Shown: positions 1,082 to 49,086 of the stretch, piece by piece | Numbering within the stretch: the stretch's first letter is position 1 | How the letters are laid out: each line of letters opens with the position of its first letter | NCBI GenBank assembly: GCA_903821355.1 | Contig: CAIJKW010000006.1 | Location: 23,898 to 87,897 of the forward strand | Source: an uncultured bacterium | GTDB lineage: Bacteria; Patescibacteriota; Minisyncoccia; Phycocordibacterales; CAIZLB01 | Reading direction: 5' to 3' | Length of the DNA: 64,000 nt | Notes under the pieces: generated by a model | The model's input: only the letters and a program-made list of their open reading frames with translations | The model's database searches: none | What the model was told of the DNA's origin: nothing | Translations under genes and position numbers: made by a program

Positions 1082-1453
1082 CTAGGATCTAAGGACGCCA
1101 ATGAGGCCTCCGAAAAGTCCTACAGCAGATGACGCAAAGTATTGGCCGCAGAGGCTGTATCCTTCTTCCACAACGACCTTGTTGAGGTCGCCAAAGTCAA
1201 AGAATCCGGCAATGCAGATTGAAAACAACAGGATCAGTTCCGTGACCAAGAGCTGTTTCAGGCTGAAGCCAAGGATTTTGCCCTTGTCTGAAGAAAGCAC
1301 ATGAAGAACAATCGCTGCAACTAGCGCCATATTGAGAAGGAAGACGGACATGCAAATCATTTTCATAGGTACATGGGGTTGGAATTCAGGTTCGATAGAG
1401 CAAAAACTCACTGACGAAGTCAGTGGCAGATGTGCCATCGATTCTGAATTCAA
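1082..1453 (-). CDS. hypothetical small membrane protein
   Basis: 123-aa ORF with about 3 hydrophobic helices. No family recognised. Confidence 0.4.
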   Translation of the reverse strand: MNSESMAHLPLTSSVSFCSIEPEFQPHVPMKMICMSVFLLNMALVAAIVLHVLSSDKGKILGFSLKQLLVTELILLFSICIAGFFDFGDLNKVVVEEGYSLCGQYFASSAVGLFGGLIGVLRS

Positions 1454-1548: not shown

Positions 1549-2313
1549 TTATAGAATATGACCATCACTCATCTTAATCACTCTATCTGTAAACTTTCCG
1601 TATTCTTCTTCGTGAGTAACCATTACAATGGTTTGTCCTTTCTTGTGTAGTTTTTTAAAAATCTCCATAATCATGTCCGATGATTCATTATCTAGGTTTG
1701 CCGTAGGTTCATCGGCAAAAAGAATTGTTGGCGAATGAGCAATCGCGCGAGCAATAGAAACTCTCTGTTGTTCTCCACCAGAAAGTTTTGCAGGTAAATT
1801 ATTAAATTTTGTACCAAGTCCTACTTCTATCAATTGCTCCTCAGCAATCTTATATGCCTCTTCCTTATTTACTCCCTGCATAATCAAAGGCACGGCAACA
1901 TTCTCTCCTGCGGTTAAATCAGGCAAAAGAGCGTAGTCTTGAAAAACGTATCCAAGCTTATGTAGTCTGAATTTAACCCTATCGTCACTTGATAAACTGT
2001 GAGCATTTAGGCCATCGATTATTATCTCACCTGAAGTTGGATGATCCAGTAAACTTATCTGATACAACATTGTACTTTTTCCTGCACCAGAGCGACCCAT
2101 GATAGAAATAAATTCACCACTTTTAATATCCAAATCAACACCCTTTAAAACCGTAGTCTCTTTTGTTCCATCCAAAAATGTTTTGGTCAAACCTCTTGTG
2201 CTAATAATAAAATCCCCATGCCTCGTTGATCTTTTTTTCCAAGCATCACCAACAAGAATACTTTCCTTTGCGCCATCAATTTTTTCGTTTTTATTTAAAT
2301 TTTTCTTGTTCAT
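1549..2313 (-). CDS. ABC transporter ATP-binding protein (MacB/LolD/FtsE-like)
   Basis: Walker A GRSGAGKST, ABC signature LSGGEQQRVSIARA and Walker B ILFADEPT. It forms an operon with the upstream permease and adaptor genes. Confidence 0.9.
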   Translation of the reverse strand: MNKKNLNKNEKIDGAKESILVGDAWKKRSTRHGDFIISTRGLTKTFLDGTKETTVLKGVDLDIKSGEFISIMGRSGAGKSTMLYQISLLDHPTSGEIIIDGLNAHSLSSDDRVKFRLHKLGYVFQDYALLPDLTAGENVAVPLIMQGVNKEEAYKIAEEQLIEVGLGTKFNNLPAKLSGGEQQRVSIARAIAHSPTILFADEPTANLDNESSDMIMEIFKKLHKKGQTIVMVTHEEEYGKFTDRVIKMSDGHIL

Positions 2314-5277: not shown

Positions 5278-5438
5278 ATTTAAAATTTATTATAGCACAT
5301 TTTTTAGAAAGTTTTCAAAACAAAAAAATAAGAAAAGAAAAATCCCCTCACAAGTGTGAGTCGCGAGGCGACTTTTCCTTGTAAGGGGTTTATCCAATTA
5401 TGTATTGGAACCAGGTAGGACTACTACCATTTTGACAA

Positions 5439-6485
5439 CTAAGGAACGGGGGACCAATCCCTCCAAGTTCCACGAACTCCAGTCCAGACCATCCTGTAGA
5501 ATTCCTTTGCTGGACGACGACGCTCATTCGGATAGTTCTGATCGAACATAACCCATTCATAGGTATTGGAGTAAAAACCCACTTCACCATCAGGAATAGT
5601 ATGTGGTCCGACCCAATTTCCGCCTTCACCGCCGAAGCCCCAATCTGTCCAAGTCACAAGGTCTATCGACCGTTGCAACTTGAAATATTCCAGTTGTTCA
5701 CCAGACATCCGAAGGACAGTACCTTCATCACTTGAGTTTGGATAGGTTTCAGAAATGGACTTAAGGCTGACCAACTCCGGCAACGGAACATCCGCAACCT
5801 TGTAGACAATATTGATGCCATCGTTTCCACCGATCGTAAGCATCACTTCAGGATACTCAACCCCATCGTAGGTAGGGATGAAGGAAATGTGCCAGCGAAC
5901 AATGTAACCTTGGCCAAGAACTGGTTTGGTGAAGTCCTGCGACGAACCCCATCTCAGTTTTTGCCTTGTGACGAACAAGTCGCCGACATTATTCACTGTC
6001 GAACCTATGATTGGCGTATCGTTGGTGCTGTTGATACTGCTGGCCTCATTCCACATAGTAAGATCGGTTGTGAATACCGACGGAGCTGACAATGTCGTCT
6101 CATCTCCAAACGTTTTCACTTTGATACCGACCGCCGGGCTGTTATCGGACAACAAAACCGGAGTCTCGTTGTCGAATGAATCCGTGTGGTAGATATCGTA
6201 TTCAAACCTTGTGATTTTGATAGAATCGAGTGGAATGGGCTGCTCCCAGACGGAGTTTTGAATCCTGAAGCCGACATCAAAACCATCAGCCACGCACACT
6301 TGCGGGACATTTAGGTTTAACGTATAGGGCTTGTTGGAATTAACCATCGCTCGATTGAACTCACCAACAACGCTAATGCCGCCGATGATATCATAATAAG
6401 GCGTAATGTCCTGTGCTGACACGTGGGAGGTTGGAATGGCCAACATAAGGCCGATGATGATTGAAACTAACTGATTTTTTTTCAT
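5439..6485 (-). CDS. hypothetical secreted protein with signal peptide and Trp-rich C-terminus
   Basis: N-terminal signal peptide MKKNQLVSIIIGLMLAIPTSHVSAQ. No recognisable domain. Confidence 0.55.
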   Translation of the reverse strand: MKKNQLVSIIIGLMLAIPTSHVSAQDITPYYDIIGGISVVGEFNRAMVNSNKPYTLNLNVPQVCVADGFDVGFRIQNSVWEQPIPLDSIKITRFEYDIYHTDSFDNETPVLLSDNSPAVGIKVKTFGDETTLSAPSVFTTDLTMWNEASSINSTNDTPIIGSTVNNVGDLFVTRQKLRWGSSQDFTKPVLGQGYIVRWHISFIPTYDGVEYPEVMLTIGGNDGINIVYKVADVPLPELVSLKSISETYPNSSDEGTVLRMSGEQLEYFKLQRSIDLVTWTDWGFGGEGGNWVGPHTIPDGEVGFYSNTYEWVMFDQNYPNERRRPAKEFYRMVWTGVRGTWRDWSPVP

Positions 6486-6775
6486 TTTGCTTTCTGTGTT
6501 TGCTGTTTGCTGTGTTTTCTTCTAACTATTGGTTTTGAGCAGTTTTGTTTATAACTGCATCTTAGAAGATTCATATATATCCTCAAAGATGCAGTCAAAA
6601 ACTACAAAATTTCAATGTTCAATTACAAACACAAGTATAACATACATTAACAGTATGTCAATGGATTCATCAATTTTATTCAGCTTTTAAGCCATAAAAC
6701 CCTTATTCATAGCCACACCTCCCAGTATTTTGCATATTGGCAATCAAATTGGCAAAAGGTTGCCTCGTGTGGGTG

Positions 6776-6875
6776 GTGGTGCAAACCTGCCTTTTGAGAG
6801 ACTTGCGAGTTGCAACGAGCAGAGCCAATTCAGAGCACTGAATTGGCGTTCTCTCAAGAGGCAGGTTTGCACCAC
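6776..6875. repeat. long imperfect hairpin (~26-bp stem) with the conserved core TTGAGAGACTTGCGAGTTGCAACGAGC (copy A)
   Basis: GGTGGTGCAAACCTGCC..TTGAGAGA pairs with TCTCTCAA..GGCAGGTTTGCACCAC. The 27-nt core at 6794-6820 is identical to 15808-15834. There is an inner hairpin CCAATTCAG/CTGAATTGG. It lies in the divergent region upstream of typA. Confidence 0.6.
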
Positions 6876-6948
6876 GACCTTCGAATATAATTCTTTTAAC
6901 AATTTGATTGCCAAAATACCAAAATAGTGTTTAAATGAACTCTCAATT

Positions 6949-8739
6949 ATGCAAATACGTAACATCGCGATTATCGCCCACGTTGACCATGGAAAAACAA
7001 CCATCGTTGATGCCATTATGAAATACACTGGAGCTGTCAAAGATGCAGTATCCATGGACTCTAACGCCATTGAACTTGAGCGAGGTATTACTATATATGC
7101 CAAAAACGCCTCATTTGAGTACAAAGGAACAAAAGTAAACGTTATAGACACACCAGGTCACGCAGACTTTGGCTCAGAGGTTGAGCGTGTTCTTCGTTCT
7201 ATTGACTGTGTTCTACTTATTGTCGATGCACAAGAAGGACCAATGCCACAAACTCGTTTCGTACTTAAAAAATCTCTTGAGCTTGGTCTTAAGCCAATTG
7301 TCGTTCTTAACAAACTAGACAAGCCAGCCGCAAATCCAGCAAGAGTTCACGATGAAATCCTAGAACTATTTATAGAACTTGGTGCTCATGATCATCAATT
7401 AGACTTCCCTATGGTTTATTGTATTGGACGCGAAGGTAAGGCAAAGCTAAATTTGGACGATGAATTTGTAAACCTTGATCCCCTACTCGATACAATTATT
7501 AAAGAAGTTCCTCCTGCAAAAAGTGCGCCAGAAGAAACTCTTGAGGCTCAACCTTTTAACCTCGCATATGACAATTTTCTTGGAAGAATGGCTGTTACTC
7601 GTATTTGGACAGGAACTCTTAAAATGGGTCAAACTTTGTTTATTAAAAAAGATACAGGAGAAACAAGAACCGGAAGAATTACAAAACTTTTTACATTTGA
7701 TGGTCTAGCAAGAAAAGAAGTTAAGGAAGCATACTCAGGTGACGTCGTGATGATTGCAGGACTTTCTGATATTTTTATTGGCGAGACAATAACTGACAAG
7801 GAGGATACTTTGCCTTTGCCCTCAATTAAAATTGACGAACCAACAATTTCTCTTGGTTTTCTTGTTAACGATTCTCCTTTTGCAGGTCGCGAAGGTAAAT
7901 ATGTTACAGGACGTCAAATTAGAGATAGATTAGAAAAAGAACTTGAAGTTAACGTTGGTCTTCATGTCGATTTCGACCAAGCCGACGTTCTTAAAGTTTA
8001 TGGACGTGGAGAATTACATGTCGCAGTTCTACTTGAACAAATGCGTCGTGAAGGATATGAGCTTCAAGTTTCTCAACCTGAGGTTATTATCAAAGAAGTA
8101 AACGGAGAAAAATGTGAGCCATTTGAAGAGGTTGTTATTGATACACCAAGTGAATTCTCAGGAGCTGTTATTGATAAGCTTGGAAGAAGAAAAGGAATTA
8201 TGACTTCAATGAAAGATCATGGTGGTATCACAAGAATGACCTTCGATATTCCTACTCGTGGGCTTTTGGGTTACAGAAGTCAATTCGTTATTGATACGAG
8301 AGGTGAAGGAATTATGTCTTCCCGTTTTGAAGACTTCAGACCTCACGTTGGTACAATTGAAAAAAGAGCTGTTGGATCTATGATTTCAATGGAGAGTGGT
8401 AAGGTTCTACACTTTGCTCTTGGAAACTTACAAGACAGAGGCGTGCTTTATGTTGCCCCAGGAACTGAGGTTTATGCTGGTATGGTTATCGGAAACACAT
8501 CTAAGGGAGAAGAAATGGAAGTTAACCCAACTAAAGGAAAGCAACTTACTAACATGCGTGCATCTGGAACTGATGAGACAGTATATCTTGCCCCTGCACT
8601 TGAAATTACAATTGAACGTGGACTTGAAATCATGTGTGAAGATGAATACTTGGAAATCACACCAACTTCAGCAAGGTTGCGTAAAAAGTTTTTGACAAAG
8701 ACAGGAAGAGAGAGAGCAGAGAAAGGAATCACAAAATAG
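6949..8739 (+). CDS. typA: translational GTPase TypA/BipA
   Basis: 596 aa. G1 motif AHVDHGKTT and G3 motif DTPGHADF. BipA-type domain order along the full length. Confidence 0.9.
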
Positions 8740-9616: not shown

Positions 9617-9967
9617 TTAGTAGTCGCGTCTGAATCCACGATCTCCACCTCTATCACCTCCACGATCGTTTCCTCTTCCACCAAAGTCTCTTCTAGGACC
9701 TCCAGTTGGATTCTCTGTCTTTGGACGAGCCCTGTTTACAACAAGGTTTCTTCCATCAAGATCTTGCTCGTTAAACATAGCGATAGCAGCGTCTGTAGCT
9801 TCATCGGTTGCCATTGTGACAAATCCGAATCCACGTGAACGTCCACTCATATTCTCTGTCATAACGATTGCGTCTACTACTTCTCCAGCCTTTGAAAACG
9901 CTGCCTTTAGACTATCTGTAGTTGTAGTCCAAGCTAGGTTTCCAACATATAATTTCTTCTCTCCCAT
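9617..9967 (-). CDS. RNA-binding protein with RRM (RNP-1/RNP-2) domain and Arg/Gly-rich tail
   Basis: RNP-2 LYVGNL and RNP-1 RGFGFVTM. C-terminal RGG/RGD-rich tail. Confidence 0.85.
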   Translation of the reverse strand: MGEKKLYVGNLAWTTTTDSLKAAFSKAGEVVDAIVMTENMSGRSRGFGFVTMATDEATDAAIAMFNEQDLDGRNLVVNRARPKTENPTGGPRRDFGGRGNDRGGDRGGDRGFRRDY

Positions 9968-14819: not shown

Positions 14820-15788
14820 ATGACAAGCCCATACCAATCACCGACACATTCACCATTAGTTTTCTTTGGCTCATCACTGATGTCCGTTAAGGTCTTAAAC
14901 GCCCTTCGTAATTACGGAATAAATGCTGATGTAATTGTAACAATACCAGACAAGCCTCAAGGAAGAAAATTAATTCTCACCCCAAACCCAACAAAAATTT
15001 GGGCGCTCGAGCATAATATTCCACATCTTGAATTTGCAAAATTAAATGATGAAGCTTATGAAAAGTTACAATCGGTAGGAAATTTAATTAATCAGCCACA
15101 AGGTGGAGACGGTGGAAAGCCAAAGTTATTCATTGTGGCCTCTTACGGAAAAATAATTCCTGAAAGATTTTTAGAGATTCCAGAATTTGGCGCATTAAAC
15201 GTGCACCCATCAAAACTTCCGGAACTTCGCGGGGCCGCTCCACTTCAAACAACAATACTACAAGACAAGAATAAAACGGCTGTAACTATAATTAAAATGG
15301 ATAAGGAAATGGACCATGGGGCAATCTTCGCTCAAAGAGATGTAGATATCGCAGAAATTGCAAACTGGCCAACAACATATTCGGAGCTAGAATTAATTAC
15401 AGCTAATATTGGAGCACAATTAATTACAGAAAATCTGGATTCATATATAAGTGGTGAGTTAAAATTACAAGAACAAGATCACGACCTTGCAACTTTCACC
15501 GGCAAAACGTTAAAGGAAGATGGCCTAATAGATCCTTGGACTACAGACGCAGAAAAACAGAGAAAAAATATCCTTAAAATAAGAGCGTACGAAGAGTGGC
15601 CCGGAACATATTTCTTCGTGGATAAAAAAATTAAAGGCGAGGATAAAAAAATTCGCGTGATAGTTAAAGAAGCTGAATGGTTGGAAAATGAAGACGCTGG
15701 ACATCAACTGAAAATTACAAAAGTTGTTCCAGAGGGCGGAAAAGAAATGAGTTGGAATTCATTTCTGCAAAGTATTGGGAGAGGGTAA
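14820..15788 (+). CDS. fmt: methionyl-tRNA formyltransferase
   Basis: Formyltransferase N-domain (LNVHPSKLPELRGAAPLQ) plus the Fmt C-terminal domain. Directly downstream of def. Confidence 0.9.
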   Translation: MTSPYQSPTHSPLVFFGSSLMSVKVLNALRNYGINADVIVTIPDKPQGRKLILTPNPTKIWALEHNIPHLEFAKLNDEAYEKLQSVGNLINQPQGGDGGKPKLFIVASYGKIIPERFLEIPEFGALNVHPSKLPELRGAAPLQTTILQDKNKTAVTIIKMDKEMDHGAIFAQRDVDIAEIANWPTTYSELELITANIGAQLITENLDSYISGELKLQEQDHDLATFTGKTLKEDGLIDPWTTDAEKQRKNILKIRAYEEWPGTYFFVDKKIKGEDKKIRVIVKEAEWLENEDAGHQLKITKVVPEGGKEMSWNSFLQSIGRG

Positions 15789-15797
15789 AACAAAATA

Positions 15798-15895
15798 AAA
15801 ACACCTATTGAGAGACTTGCGAGTTGCAACGAGCGGATGATTCCGTCTACAGGAATCATTCACCAGAAAACCCTCGTGTTCTCAATAGGTGTTTT
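15798..15895. repeat. long hairpin with the conserved core TTGAGAGACTTGCGAGTTGCAACGAGC (copy B); probably also a bidirectional terminator
   Basis: AACACCTATTGAGAGA pairs with TCTCAATAGGTGTT. An A-run precedes it and a T-run follows. The core at 15808-15834 is identical to 6794-6820. It lies between convergent fmt and hpf. Confidence 0.6.
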
Positions 15896-15904
15896 ATTTT
15901 ATAT

Positions 15905-16255
15905 CTATCCCCTCTTAAATAAATTCTTTATTTTTTGTGCACCCTTTCTAAATAGAGTTTGTTTTTTGTCTTTTTTATTCGACAACATGTTAAATAGTTC
16001 TTCCTGCACTAGATCGATAGATGAATACATATTATCAGATGTTTTTTCCGCCTTATTCATCTTGCCTTTATTCCAAACAAGAACTTTGGCTCTAAAAATA
16101 TCACCAGACTTATGATGGTTGGTTGTTTTTTCTAACTCAACCTCAACTTTAGTATCTTCATTAATAAACTTCTCAATCGATGACATCTTTTTGTAAAGAT
16201 AATCCCTAACAGGTTCTGTGATATCAATGTTTATTCCTTTTGTGATTATTTTCAT
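15905..16255 (-). CDS. hpf: ribosome hibernation promoting factor / ribosome-associated inhibitor A (YfiA family)
   Basis: 116 aa. MKIITKGINIDITEPVRDYLYKKM… matches the RaiA/HPF fold. Confidence 0.85.
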   Translation of the reverse strand: MKIITKGINIDITEPVRDYLYKKMSSIEKFINEDTKVEVELEKTTNHHKSGDIFRAKVLVWNKGKMNKAEKTSDNMYSSIDLVQEELFNMLSNKKDKKQTLFRKGAQKIKNLFKRG

Positions 16256-20623: not shown

Positions 20624-20876
20624 TCTGAACAAATATTCTTTCTAAGTGTCAGACAAAAAATTTTAGAACCTTAAATCTAAAATTTAAAAAACAAAAAAAC
20701 TATCATTCAAAATTTACAACAAAAACTACCATAAATCGTCTGGTGGTTTTTTTGTTGGTGGAGTTTTACAAGATATTTATTATTTGAAAAACGAAAATCC
20801 CACCACCTAGACGGTGAGAATTCCGTTTTTGGATGTTGGGATTTTGGATGTTGTTGTGATGCTGTTGTATTGATAG

Positions 20877-47527: not shown

Positions 47528-49026
47528 AAGCAATAAACGTCTCAAGAGTATCAACGGAAGAACAAAAAGAAGCTGGTAATTCCCTACCTGCTCAAATTGA
47601 GCGTATAAATAAATATTGCAAAAACAAATCATTTGAAATTATTAAATCTTTTAGCTTCGATGAAAGTGCCTATAAAGATAAGCGAGATGAATTTGATAAA
47701 TTTTTAGACTACGTTGAAGAGTTAGTTAAAAAAGAGAAGATAGCAGTTTGTTTTGACAAAGTAGACAGGCTTTCAAGAAGTGTTTTCGACAAGAGAGTTG
47801 CGAGACTTTATGAACTGGCCATGGCTGGAAAAATTGAACTTCATTTTGTTTCTGATAATCAGGTAATAAAAGGTGAGCTTTCTGCAACTGAAAAAGGTGG
47901 GTTTGGTATGAGTCTCGTAATGGCTAGTTACTATTCAAATGCTATTAGTGATAATGTCAAAAGAGCTTTTGAGCAAAAAAGAAGAAGTGGAGAATGGACT
48001 GGGCCAGTGTGTTTAGGTTATTTAAATATAAGCCTAAACGAGGAAAAAAGACTACGCAAAGACATAATAATTGACCCAGAGCGTGGCCACCTTATTCTAA
48101 AAATGTTTGAGCTTTATTCGACAGGATTGTACTCTTTAGAAACCTTGAGATTAAAGATGACAGAACTTGGATTAAGAACTCTCAAGGGAAACATCTTAAC
48201 AAAAAGCGGAGTTGATAACATAATAAGAAACAGCTTTTATTGTGGAATAGCTATTTCGAGAAAATATGGTGCATACCCACACAACTACCCTCGTCTAATA
48301 ACTAAGGATTTATTTGATAGATGTAAGGAAATTCAAATTGGACGATTCAATAACATACATAAGGAAGTCTCAAAAGACTTCATCTTTAAAGGTTTACTAA
48401 AATGCCAGAATTGCGGTTGTGCAATAACAGCTGAGCAACACGAGGGCAAGCCCATATACTATTCCTGTACAAATGGTAAACATATATGCAAGAGATTATA
48501 TATCAATGAGAAAGACCTTCTGAAGCCCATATACGAGGTCCTAGAGCGTTTTGAGAGCATTACAGAGGAGGTGGCTAATGATTTAGTAAGTGAGCTAAGA
48601 AAGAACACTGAATCAGAAATTGTGTATCATAAAGCACAAATTAATCGTATAAGAATTAATTACGATAACCTTTTAGCAAAACAAGAAAGACTGCTTGAAG
48701 CTTTTTTGGACCAGAGTATTACTAAGAGCATCTATGACAAGAAACACGAAGAGCAACAAGACCAAATACAGACCTTAGAAATTGAAATGTCTGAACACAA
48801 TAAAGCAGACTATGATTACCAAACTACCGTTGCCACAGTACTTTCTGTAGCAAGAAGAGCAAAGAGCATATTTGAAAATAGTTCTGAAGTTGCAGGAAAA
48901 AGAGCATTTTTGAGCATGATACTTCAGAACCCTGTCATAAACGAAAAAAAGCTAGTGTTTACAATAGCTTCTCCGTTCAATCTAGTATTAGAATTAGCTG
49001 ACCGTCCAAACTGGCTCCGCGGGTAG
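47524..49026 (+). CDS. large serine recombinase (resolvase/invertase N-domain + recombinase domain + zinc ribbon)
   Basis: Catalytic region INVSRVSTEEQ…DRLSRS. Cys cluster CQNCGC…CTNGKHIC. Coiled-coil C-terminus. Its last 15 nt overlap the 3' end of tRNA-Asn on the opposite strand. Confidence 0.85.
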   Translation: MKAINVSRVSTEEQKEAGNSLPAQIERINKYCKNKSFEIIKSFSFDESAYKDKRDEFDKFLDYVEELVKKEKIAVCFDKVDRLSRSVFDKRVARLYELAMAGKIELHFVSDNQVIKGELSATEKGGFGMSLVMASYYSNAISDNVKRAFEQKRRSGEWTGPVCLGYLNISLNEEKRLRKDIIIDPERGHLILKMFELYSTGLYSLETLRLKMTELGLRTLKGNILTKSGVDNIIRNSFYCGIAISRKYGAYPHNYPRLITKDLFDRCKEIQIGRFNNIHKEVSKDFIFKGLLKCQNCGCAITAEQHEGKPIYYSCTNGKHICKRLYINEKDLLKPIYEVLERFESITEEVANDLVSELRKNTESEIVYHKAQINRIRINYDNLLAKQERLLEAFLDQSITKSIYDKKHEEQQDQIQTLEIEMSEHNKADYDYQTTVATVLSVARRAKSIFENSSEVAGKRAFLSMILQNPVINEKKLVFTIASPFNLVLELADRPNWLRG

Positions 49027-49086
49027 GATTCGAACCTACGACCAATTCGTTAACAGCGAACTGCTCTACCACTGAGCTACCGCGGA
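49012..49086 (-). tRNA. tRNA-Asn (anticodon GUU), CCA encoded
   Basis: Manual fold: acceptor UCCGCGG/CCGCGGA; D-arm GCUC-AGUGGU-AGAGC; anticodon stem GUUCG/CGAAU with loop CUGUUAA; T-arm GGUUCGAAUCC; discriminator G + CCA. Confidence 0.85.

Follow-up and report, generated by a model that had tools for sequence, protein, structure and literature searches.

What is the 27-nt sequence TTGAGAGACTTGCGAGTTGCAACGAGC, which recurs inside two otherwise dissimilar long hairpins of one bacterial genome? Within a 64-kb stretch of DNA from an uncultured bacterium (contig CAIJKW010000006.1; hereafter the window, meaning the whole stretch), it is found exactly twice, both times on the plus strand, at 6794–6820 (copy A) and 15808–15834 (copy B); no third match appeared in the window when up to three mismatches were allowed, and there were 0 in 100 shuffles. 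A first-pass annotation of this DNA had described an identical core in two long hairpins with different closing stems, and had suspected a dispersed structured element and not a simple terminator. Both sites are confirmed here. The arms of copy A (6772–6801 and 6850–6879) are 30 nt long and 93% complementary, and its RNA fold reaches −75.6 kcal/mol (z = −12 against shuffled controls); copy B, with arms at about 15792–15815 and 15879–15900, folds at −43.9 kcal/mol (z = −8.1). The outer stem sequences of the two copies are unlike, as had been described.

We find that copies A and B are members of an uncatalogued family of intergenic elements, 110–140 nt in length, whose fold is real and under selection. 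The family conserves a branched tip, which covaries as a structure on one strand, and carries it on a long stem whose sequence is private to each copy. Below we set out how the family was recovered and how it is built, where its copies lie and how they come and go, and which explanations fit these observations.

A family restricted to Saccharibacteria-like bacteria

One genome per species was scanned with the 19-mer CTTGCGAGTTGCAACGAGC, which gave 13 loci. Twelve of these lie in six bins labelled Candidatus Saccharibacteria or 'uncultured bacterium' (five in a single bin); the thirteenth, in a Verrucomicrobiae bin, has no structure around the match and is a probable chance match. A covariance model built from nine copies and run over the same loci added copies without the exact core, which brought bin CAINHC01 to at least 7 in all, and a metagenome scan with the core pattern made degenerate at covarying positions gave 47 loci, with 45 model matches, some duplicate or truncated. 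This search of related genomes and metagenomes, which the first-pass annotation had proposed, yielded about 53 distinct copies once duplicates were removed, all of them intergenic. Run over the window with all filters off, the model found copies A and B only. Labels of the form L001–L065 denote loci in genome bins or metagenome contigs, and the host genomes are seen only as fragments of 1–22 kb. The copies are restricted to a small clade of Saccharibacteria-like bacteria belonging to the candidate phyla radiation (CPR), with an estimated ten or more copies per genome.

The family is absent from the catalogues that we searched. Rfam 15, run over the whole window at the gathering threshold, returned a tRNA at 49015–49086 only, and permissive scans of both sites gave only matches to miRNA-precursor-like hairpins, far below threshold. 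The core pattern had no match in a viral collection and the whole element none in phage and plasmid collections; an origin in a phage or plasmid, or as the end of a known insertion sequence (IS), was rejected on this basis, and the core is neither part of a known IS nor a catalogued RNA. No published description of a hairpin repeat of this kind in Saccharibacteria or CPR bacteria was found in the literature.

Exact matches to the core pattern also occur without structure, at L013, L040, L046, L047, L015, L020, L035–L037, L052, L058 and L060. They sit in GC-rich or otherwise unrelated contigs, and L037, L058 and L060 share a homologous open reading frame (ORF). Since these structureless matches look like chance or coding sequence, the 19–21-mer alone is not diagnostic.

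A three-way junction with a conserved cap

The whole element is a three-way junction in which two helices, P2 and P3, cap a third, P1. P1 has a median length of 31 bp (range 14–51), is nearly all Watson–Crick, and is private in sequence to each copy save for a junction-proximal AGAG/CUCU. P2 reads 5'-UUGC-GA-(apex)-GA-GCAG-3', comprising a base of four pairs, one of them an invariant U·G, a symmetric internal loop of tandem G·A pairs in a CGAG/CGAG context, and an apex that usually has two pairs and a UGCA loop; the apex may be 2, 4 (L007 3890) or 11 bp long (L019 2586), the base and the G·A pairs being constant. After a single A follows P3, a 10-bp hairpin whose loop is AGCA in 39 of 48 aligned copies, AGUA in 5 and AGGA in 1, the remaining 3 having at this place the inserted extra arm of a subtype. 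The junction C finds its partner in a G after P3, a bulged U is often present, and the 3' arm of P1 completes the element. The cap, that is, the 'loop' above P1, spans 48–72 nt. It follows from this anatomy that the 27-mer is the conserved top of P1 together with almost all of P2. Kissing of the UGCA loop of P2 with the AGCA loop of P3 was considered and is unsupported: the P2 loop is invariant and the apex length varies.

In copy A, the 5' arm of P1 is GGTGGTGGTGCAAACCTGCCTTTTGAGAGA (6772–6801, plus strand), its distal part private and its proximal AGAG conserved family-wide, as judged from the inverted repeat, the fold and family alignments. The fold and the family alignment then give the junction C6802, the P2 hairpin at 6803–6822 and the linker A6823 (6802–6823, plus), with P2 running in the order UUGC, G·A/A·G, GU-UGCA-AC, GA, GCAG. 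P3 is folded as GCCAATTCAG-AGCA-CTGAATTGGC with a 10-bp stem (6824–6847, plus), after which G6848, paired with C6802, the bulged U6849 and the P1 3' arm at 6850–6879 close the structure (6848–6879, plus), as placed by the fold, the inverted repeat and covariation.

Copy B departs from this plan. A subtype in which an extra arm (stem GAUU(U)CC/GGAA(A)UC) separates P2 from P3 occurs in L006, L011, L004, L022 and L051, and this arm looks like a duplicated P3; in the alignment, copy B and L045 1158–1247 are of the same subtype and have lost the 5' strand of P3, and it is because of this loss that copy B scores 48 bits under the model against 95 for copy A. Its P1 5' arm (15792–15815, plus) begins 4 nt past the fmt stop codon and has a distal A-tract, CAAAATAAAAA. 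The junction C and the P2 hairpin (15816–15836, plus) are the same as in copy A through 15834, and the variant hairpin GGATGATTCC-GTCTACA-GGAATCATTC (about 15835–15861, plus; from fold and alignment), whose first two bases overlap the end of P2, is the extra arm of this 'four-way' subtype. The remnant of P3 (15862–15878, plus) retains in the alignment its 3' half (CAGAAAA...) and the conserved CGUG, its 5' strand being deleted, and the P1 3' arm (15879–15900, plus) ends in the T-tract GTGTTTTATTTT, 5 nt short of the stop codon of hpf on the opposite strand.

Two details of the first-pass annotation are amended by this anatomy. It had both copies closing with TTGAGAGA/TCTCTCAA, which is exact in copy A, whereas the 3' closing sequence of copy B is TTCTCAA (15879–15885). 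It also had each copy enclosing a second, variable hairpin; a different hairpin is indeed present in each, but the element is a three-way junction and not a hairpin inside a hairpin.

Covariation in the cap and symmetric change in the stem

Covariation statistics were taken on 48 aligned copies, with shuffled alignments and alignments with pairing partners slid by 1–3 columns as controls. Standard pairs fill 96.3% of cells, as compared to 70.9% in the shuffled and 40–51% in the slid controls, in an alignment that was fitted to the model and is therefore biased toward structure; 391 cells are changed on both sides, against 108 after shuffling, and both-sided changes occur in 24 of 31 pairs. In a plain MAFFT alignment, the seven ungapped 76-nt copies gave the same pattern of covariation as in the model-fitted one. 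The covariation check that the first-pass annotation had called for thus came out strongly in all three helices. In P3, 8 of the 10 pairs show both-sided changes and 98.7% of cells pair, the closing pair being G-C in 33 copies, with G·U instead in 12. Across the 48 copies the apex of P2 covaries among GU/AC, AC/GU and GC/GC, with intermediates of G·U types; the base of P2 is invariant, and neither its U·G nor the tandem G·A shows any variation.

These changes differ between cap and stem in their relation to the strand. The model scores 95 bits on the core strand and 17 on the opposite one, and one-sided changes in the cap are of G·U types, from which it follows that the cap is specific to one strand. 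In P1, by contrast, the isolated mismatches that interrupt an otherwise perfect stem comprise 10 of G·U and 8 of A·C, favouring neither strand; P1 evolves symmetrically, as palindromic DNA. Together, these data reveal two rule sets in one element, namely covariation in the tip that is bound to one strand and tolerates G·U, and change in the stem that is symmetric and DNA-like.

Copies at fixed loci, and their gain and loss

Copies recur at the same loci in different genomes. Such groups lie just upstream of the typA promoter (window, L061/L063/L056, L005, L030 and L025), downstream of fmt (window, L027 and L051), upstream of rpmF (L001, L012 and L017), of rpsL (L008 and L014) and of rpsA (L024, L032, L044 and L045), just after tRNA-Ala (L004 and L023; about 200 nt away in L042), and directly after tRNA-Arg(CCT) (L033, L055 and L057); a copy also lies directly after tRNA-Arg(GCG) in L022. 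Orientation is constant inside each locus group. Between same-locus copies the identity of the cap is 0.89, its differences being mostly compensated, and that of the variable 5' arm is 0.60, with arms of differing length; within each copy the two arms are still about 90–100% complementary. Fmt is 73–82% identical among the species that share the fmt copy, so the cap has been kept constant over a divergence that scrambles neutral DNA. Because changes in one arm are mirrored in the other with no excess of G·U, we infer that the arms are copied from one another at the DNA level, by hairpin-templated repair or template switching.

At three slots (upstream of typA, between fmt and hpf, and upstream of an HlyD-family gene), genomes whose TypA proteins are 94–96% identical differ in having or lacking the whole hairpin. 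The slot upstream of typA is empty in L064, and also in L065 (TypA 91%) and L062 (81%). Between fmt and hpf, L061/L063 have an ordinary bidirectional terminator, AAAAAAAATAGCCCTC-atacta-GAGGGTTATTTTTT, and upstream of the HlyD gene L005 and L030 have an insertion of the whole hairpin, including both arms, that the window, L061 and L064 lack; on comparing filled with empty sites here, L005 has a possible GAAAA(G/C)TTT duplication and L030 has none. Arms of a single subfamily, TGTAAGGACAGGA.../...TCCTGTCCCTGCA, recur upstream of three different genes (rpmF, typA and the HlyD gene), which argues that whole hairpins have been copied between sites. By arm similarity 37 of the 53 copies are singletons, and shared ends are confined to the GGACAGG subfamily, the termini of other copies being unrelated. 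Two decayed copies keep GGAACATTGCGAGTTGCAAC with P3 or the stem gone (L004, about 1714–1772, minus strand; L033, about 1300–1340, plus strand); the L033 remnant lies directly upstream of an intact copy.

No gene that might mobilise the element (transposase, reverse transcriptase or nuclease) was found by Pfam among about 50 neighbours of the copies, and ORF clustering across all loci returned orthologous housekeeping genes as the only recurrent neighbours. Y1_Tnp had no match among the scanned genes beside or between copies on these genome fragments, and no autonomous version, with split cores around an ORF, was present in the 477 kb of recovered loci; one apparent half-site candidate proved to be 16S rDNA.

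Between the HlyD-family gene and typA lies a hotspot of variable genes (window 5278–6948, L061 7161–10000, L005 503–1618, L030 5543–6505). All genomes with the element in this interval have lineage-specific small ORFs there, mutually non-homologous and without a Pfam match, and three element-free genomes have no extra genes (compare L064 9881–10000). Upstream of the promoter of the HlyD gene, the window (5344–5388, minus strand) and L030 (about 6285–6335) both keep a nested, two-level terminator hairpin unrelated to the element, CCCCTYACAAG...AGTCSC...GACT...CTTGTGAGGGG, followed by a T-run.

Placement at transcription-unit boundaries

Copies lie at the boundaries of transcription units. Twenty-one of the 53 border directly on a gene's or tRNA's 3' end, and seven tRNA genes converge on the 3' side of an element, six at 13–20 nt and the one in L042 at about 200 nt; other copies end 8–30 nt upstream of a −35 hexamer (typA, rpmF, rpsL, rpsA, the HlyD gene and rpmE). 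With the element drawn on the plus strand, its neighbours are arranged as <E< in 12 contexts, <E> in 11, >E> in 11 and >E< in 8, without bias toward neighbouring transcription. T-tracts behind the hairpin are commoner than in controls (24%), both on the core strand (55% of copies) and on the other (37%). A sigma-70-like promoter precedes the cap strand in 4 of 45 copies and the other strand in 9 of 45; neither −10 matches nor full promoter matches are in excess on the cap strand, and the neighbouring genes carry canonical promoters. An apparent enrichment near translation genes (typA, rpmF, rpsL, rpsA, rpmE, rplY, hpf, fmt and tRNAs) was gone once more neighbours were annotated; further neighbours include secA, recR, SMC, RNase R and J, RNR and secDF.

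Pairs of copies 0.1–2.5 kb apart, alternating or direct, are found in L005, L030, L045, L022, L007, L011, L019 and L023. Those in L005, L030, L045 and L022 are in opposite orientation less than 1 kb apart, which rules out a fixed orientation relative to replication. The pair in L045 (1009–1084, minus, and 1158–1247, plus) is divergent, with 74 nt between its members, and lies between the 3' end of ftsZ and rpsA, a cluster resembling a bacterial interspersed mosaic element (BIME).

The gene contexts given in the first-pass annotation hold for both copies. Copy A had been placed between a secreted-protein gene and typA: Pfam identifies 6949–8739 as TypA/BipA, and the 348-aa ORF on the other side (5439–6485, minus) has a signal-peptide-like N-terminus and no Pfam family match. 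More precisely, copy A lies between a minus-strand promoter at 6634–6661 and the typA promoter (TTGCCA at 6909–6914, 17 nt, TTAAAT). The typA promoter is kept as TTGCCA-17-TTAAAT in relatives with and without the element. Copy A has no T-tract, and it is not obviously inside either flanking transcript. Copy B is situated between the convergent genes fmt (14820–15788, a formyltransferase by Pfam) and hpf (15905–16255, minus, an S30AE/HPF protein by Pfam), 14 nt from each, and is the sole hairpin there, with A- and T-tracts kept. From its position and these tracts, copy B probably serves as the fmt/hpf terminator.

Beyond the stem of copy A, after an unpaired gap, an outer inverted repeat is exact over 15 bp and continues imperfectly to about 6727–6752 against 6900–6929. 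Its left half, TTGGCAATCAAATTG (6738–6752), reads directly from the sequence as the exact reverse complement of 6900–6914, and its right half, CAATTTGATTGCCAA (6900–6914), holds the typA −35 hexamer; the outer repeat is, in other words, an inverted duplicate of the typA −35 region. Comparable outer repeats surround copies in L012/L017, L024/L032/L044 and L007.

Downstream of typA and on the opposite strand, the window has a gene for a 116-aa RRM_1 protein (a eukaryote-type RNA recognition motif; 9617–9967, minus). Its position is kept in L061, L063, L065 and L062, and two NYN-domain genes lie nearby in L061/L063. The RRM_1 and NYN-domain proteins are possible candidates for RNA-handling partners. 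Elsewhere in the window (20678–20852), a 28-nt and a 19-nt inverted repeat, both imperfect (75% and 79% complementary), occupy A/T-rich intergenic DNA and are unrelated to the family.

Discussion

The closest known behaviour is that of repetitive extragenic palindromic (REP) elements, BIMEs and REPINs and of hairpin-forming miniature inverted-repeat transposable elements (MITEs), and for that reason we tentatively favour reading the family as a REP/REPIN-like palindromic repeat with a structured recognition cap, which would act as a hairpin terminator where it is transcribed. In its favour are the gain and loss of whole hairpins between close relatives, the arm subfamily shared by three loci, the nearby pairs, the two decayed copies, an orientation without bias, a stem that changes as DNA does, and the lack of a promoter of its own. 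Whole hairpins, arms included, would be copied between intergenic sites, most probably through a single-stranded intermediate whose folded cap is recognised by a trans-acting protein, and an inserted copy would then be inherited vertically. Its arms would be held complementary by copying from arm to arm at the DNA level and not by compensation at the RNA level, and transcripts crossing it in either direction would fold a roughly 30-bp hairpin and so be terminated or processed.

Several observations weigh against a REP/REPIN-like repeat. Firstly, no transposase, RAYT-like or other mobilising gene was seen in the genome fragments; secondly, there are no family-wide terminal repeats, and the filled and empty sites upstream of the HlyD gene reveal no clear target-site duplication; thirdly, all arms differ inside one genome bin, and hence there has been no recent burst of copying; fourthly, decayed copies are rare, 2 against about 53. 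In addition, the site shared by copy A and its same-locus counterparts has divergent promoters on its two sides and offers nothing obvious to terminate. Finally, the disparity between cap and arm identity at shared loci (0.89 versus 0.60) would be expected if each copy were under selection for a function in the host, a point in favour of a structured RNA.

The main rival, a host-encoded structured RNA, is a possible account, which we hold with some doubt. In such an RNA the cap would be a functional fold (a protein platform, ribozyme or ligand binder), P1 would be a closing or processing stem, and each copy would be selected, for 3'-end protection, for the recruitment of an RNase or another factor, or for action in trans. 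Consistent with this, purifying selection on the cap is strong and its changes are compensated, across species with Fmt identities of only 73–82% and scrambled intergenic flanks, and one-sided changes in P2 and P3 are G·U and not A·C. The cap has two features typical of RNA tertiary motifs, namely the tandem G·A, unvarying in its CGAG/CGAG context, and conserved purines at the junction. The freedom of the P2 apex (2, 4 or 11 bp) above a fixed base and the constant orientation within locus groups agree as well, and a lone neighbour that abuts with its 3' end is usually convergent (8–9 loci versus 2), as for a separate gene sharing a terminator. Against such an RNA, no sigma-70-like promoter is evident before the cap strand (4 of 45 versus 9 of 45 on the other strand) although the neighbours have canonical ones; of 42 contexts, 23 have a divergent upstream neighbour and 12 have both neighbours antisense, some of them 6–20 nt away, which leaves sense transcription there unexplained. 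P1, moreover, has no preference for G·U, and no Rfam family matches.

A bolder reading is that the cap is a new functional nucleic-acid fold. It would be either an RNA module (such as a self-cleaving ribozyme or a protein-recruiting cap) carried on long double-stranded stems at transcription-unit boundaries, or the structure by which a new kind of mobile DNA, hairpin-shaped and with arms made and kept perfect by arm copying, is recognised. We consider this rather unlikely.

It is unlikely, too, that the elements are simply elaborate intrinsic, bidirectional terminators in whose loop the cap rides as an evolutionary passenger. Copy B and its same-locus counterparts do replace a plain terminator and keep the A- and T-tracts, seven copies come directly after tRNA genes, T-tracts are enriched after the hairpin, and on both strands A and C abound in the 5' arms and U and G in the 3' arms. 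A passenger cap, however, would not remain invariant with covariation; divergent genes flank about a quarter of the copies; in L005 and L030 the copy upstream of the HlyD gene comes after an ordinary terminator; many stems, including that of copy A, have no T-tract; and ordinary short terminators are present elsewhere in the organism. The first-pass annotation was right that the element is dispersed and structured, and 'not a terminator' was too strong for copy B, because copy B fills the slot of a relative's bidirectional terminator with the A- and T-tracts kept.

We give similarly low credence to a regulatory or architectural site acting at the DNA level, in which a cruciform would extrude under supercoiling, typically just upstream of promoters, and a structure-specific protein would bind the folded cap strand in any orientation. 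Such a site would account for the independence from the orientation of transcription and replication, and it agrees with the many copies that end 8–30 nt upstream of a −35 hexamer, with the symmetric, DNA-like evolution of the stem and with an inverted symmetry that runs past P1 into the promoter region. A central spacer of 50–70 nt, however, makes cruciform extrusion kinetically unfavourable, and the spacer of this family is of that length; many copies, besides, lie at 3' ends far from promoters, and the candidate binding protein is without support. A reading of the private, roughly 30-bp stems as acquired or targeting sequences on a conserved scaffold, as in CRISPR or TIGR, is largely refuted: stem length (about 20–35 bp) and private sequence are superficially spacer-like, and TIGR-Tas systems do occur in CPR bacteria (PMC12045711), but the copies are single and dispersed with no arrays, have no box C/D motifs and no 9-nt dual spacers, match only themselves in their arms among the recovered loci, gave no exact match for three arms in the viral collection, and drift gradually in their same-locus arms with relatedness.

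The family matters on more than one count. CPR and Saccharibacteria genomes are tiny and streamlined, yet this clade retains an estimated ten or more non-coding copies of 110–140 nt in each, with a branched tip conserved more strictly than most proteins of these bacteria. Should the cap bind a protein or have catalytic activity, a poorly explored phylum would have yielded a new motif of RNA or single-stranded DNA, and if arm-to-arm copying does take place, the stems would offer a clean natural case of palindrome maintenance. The covariance model lets annotators mark the elements and their terminator slots in Saccharibacteria genomes.

Comparison with known systems

REP elements, BIMEs and REPINs are multi-copy extragenic hairpins at gene ends, found in either orientation, often in alternating pairs, and at the same loci in relatives; they are thought to be handled as single-stranded hairpins and can terminate or stabilise mRNA (PMC3733652). 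Our family is likewise extragenic, multi-copy and hairpin-forming, with nearby pairs in alternating orientation. It differs in that REPs conserve the stem and a GTAG/CGTC tag and vary at the tip, whereas this family conserves a branched tip on a private stem without a tag at its base; its copy number is also far lower, about 1 per 30–60 kb, and no RAYT was identified.

Hairpin-forming MITEs and similar repeats include Correia/NEMIS in Neisseria, ERIC/IRU in enterobacteria and RUP/BOX in pneumococci, which are 100–150 nt long, form long transcript hairpins near promoters or terminators and show presence/absence polymorphism. Transcripts of hairpin MITEs are targets of RNase III or RNase E, or act as terminators. 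The elements described here are of similar size, are long hairpins and are present or absent between close relatives. MITEs, however, have conserved terminal inverted repeats, defined target duplications and conservation over their whole length, whereas this family has shared ends in one arm subfamily only, and its covarying three-way junction is without a MITE counterpart. Its pattern is thus the reverse of that of classical REP elements and MITEs.

Integron attC sites are structured single-stranded sites recognised through their fold and not their sequence, and they are detectable by covariation (PMC5737381). The variable stem sequences and the fold-based signature are common to attC and this family. 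In attC, however, the base of the stem is conserved (R/L boxes) and the tip varies, and the sites form same-orientation cassette arrays beside intI; copies of this family are dispersed among housekeeping genes in mixed orientation, with a conserved tip. Bidirectional terminators resemble copy B and a subset of others in having an A-tract, stem and T-tract between convergent genes or after tRNAs; the family departs from them in its conserved, structured 'loop' of 48–72 nt, in stems 2–3 times the usual length, and in the many copies without a T-tract or a transcript end. TIGR arrays consist of tandem units with box C/D motifs and paired 8–12 nt spacers beside a Nop-domain Tas gene (PMC12045711), as against single dispersed units without box C/D, two of them in 64 kb. 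By their defining features, then, the family belongs to none of REP, MITE, attC or TIGR. Its broad kind, that of dispersed intergenic hairpin repeats, is known; what is new is an uncatalogued family in which the tip is conserved and the stem is private.

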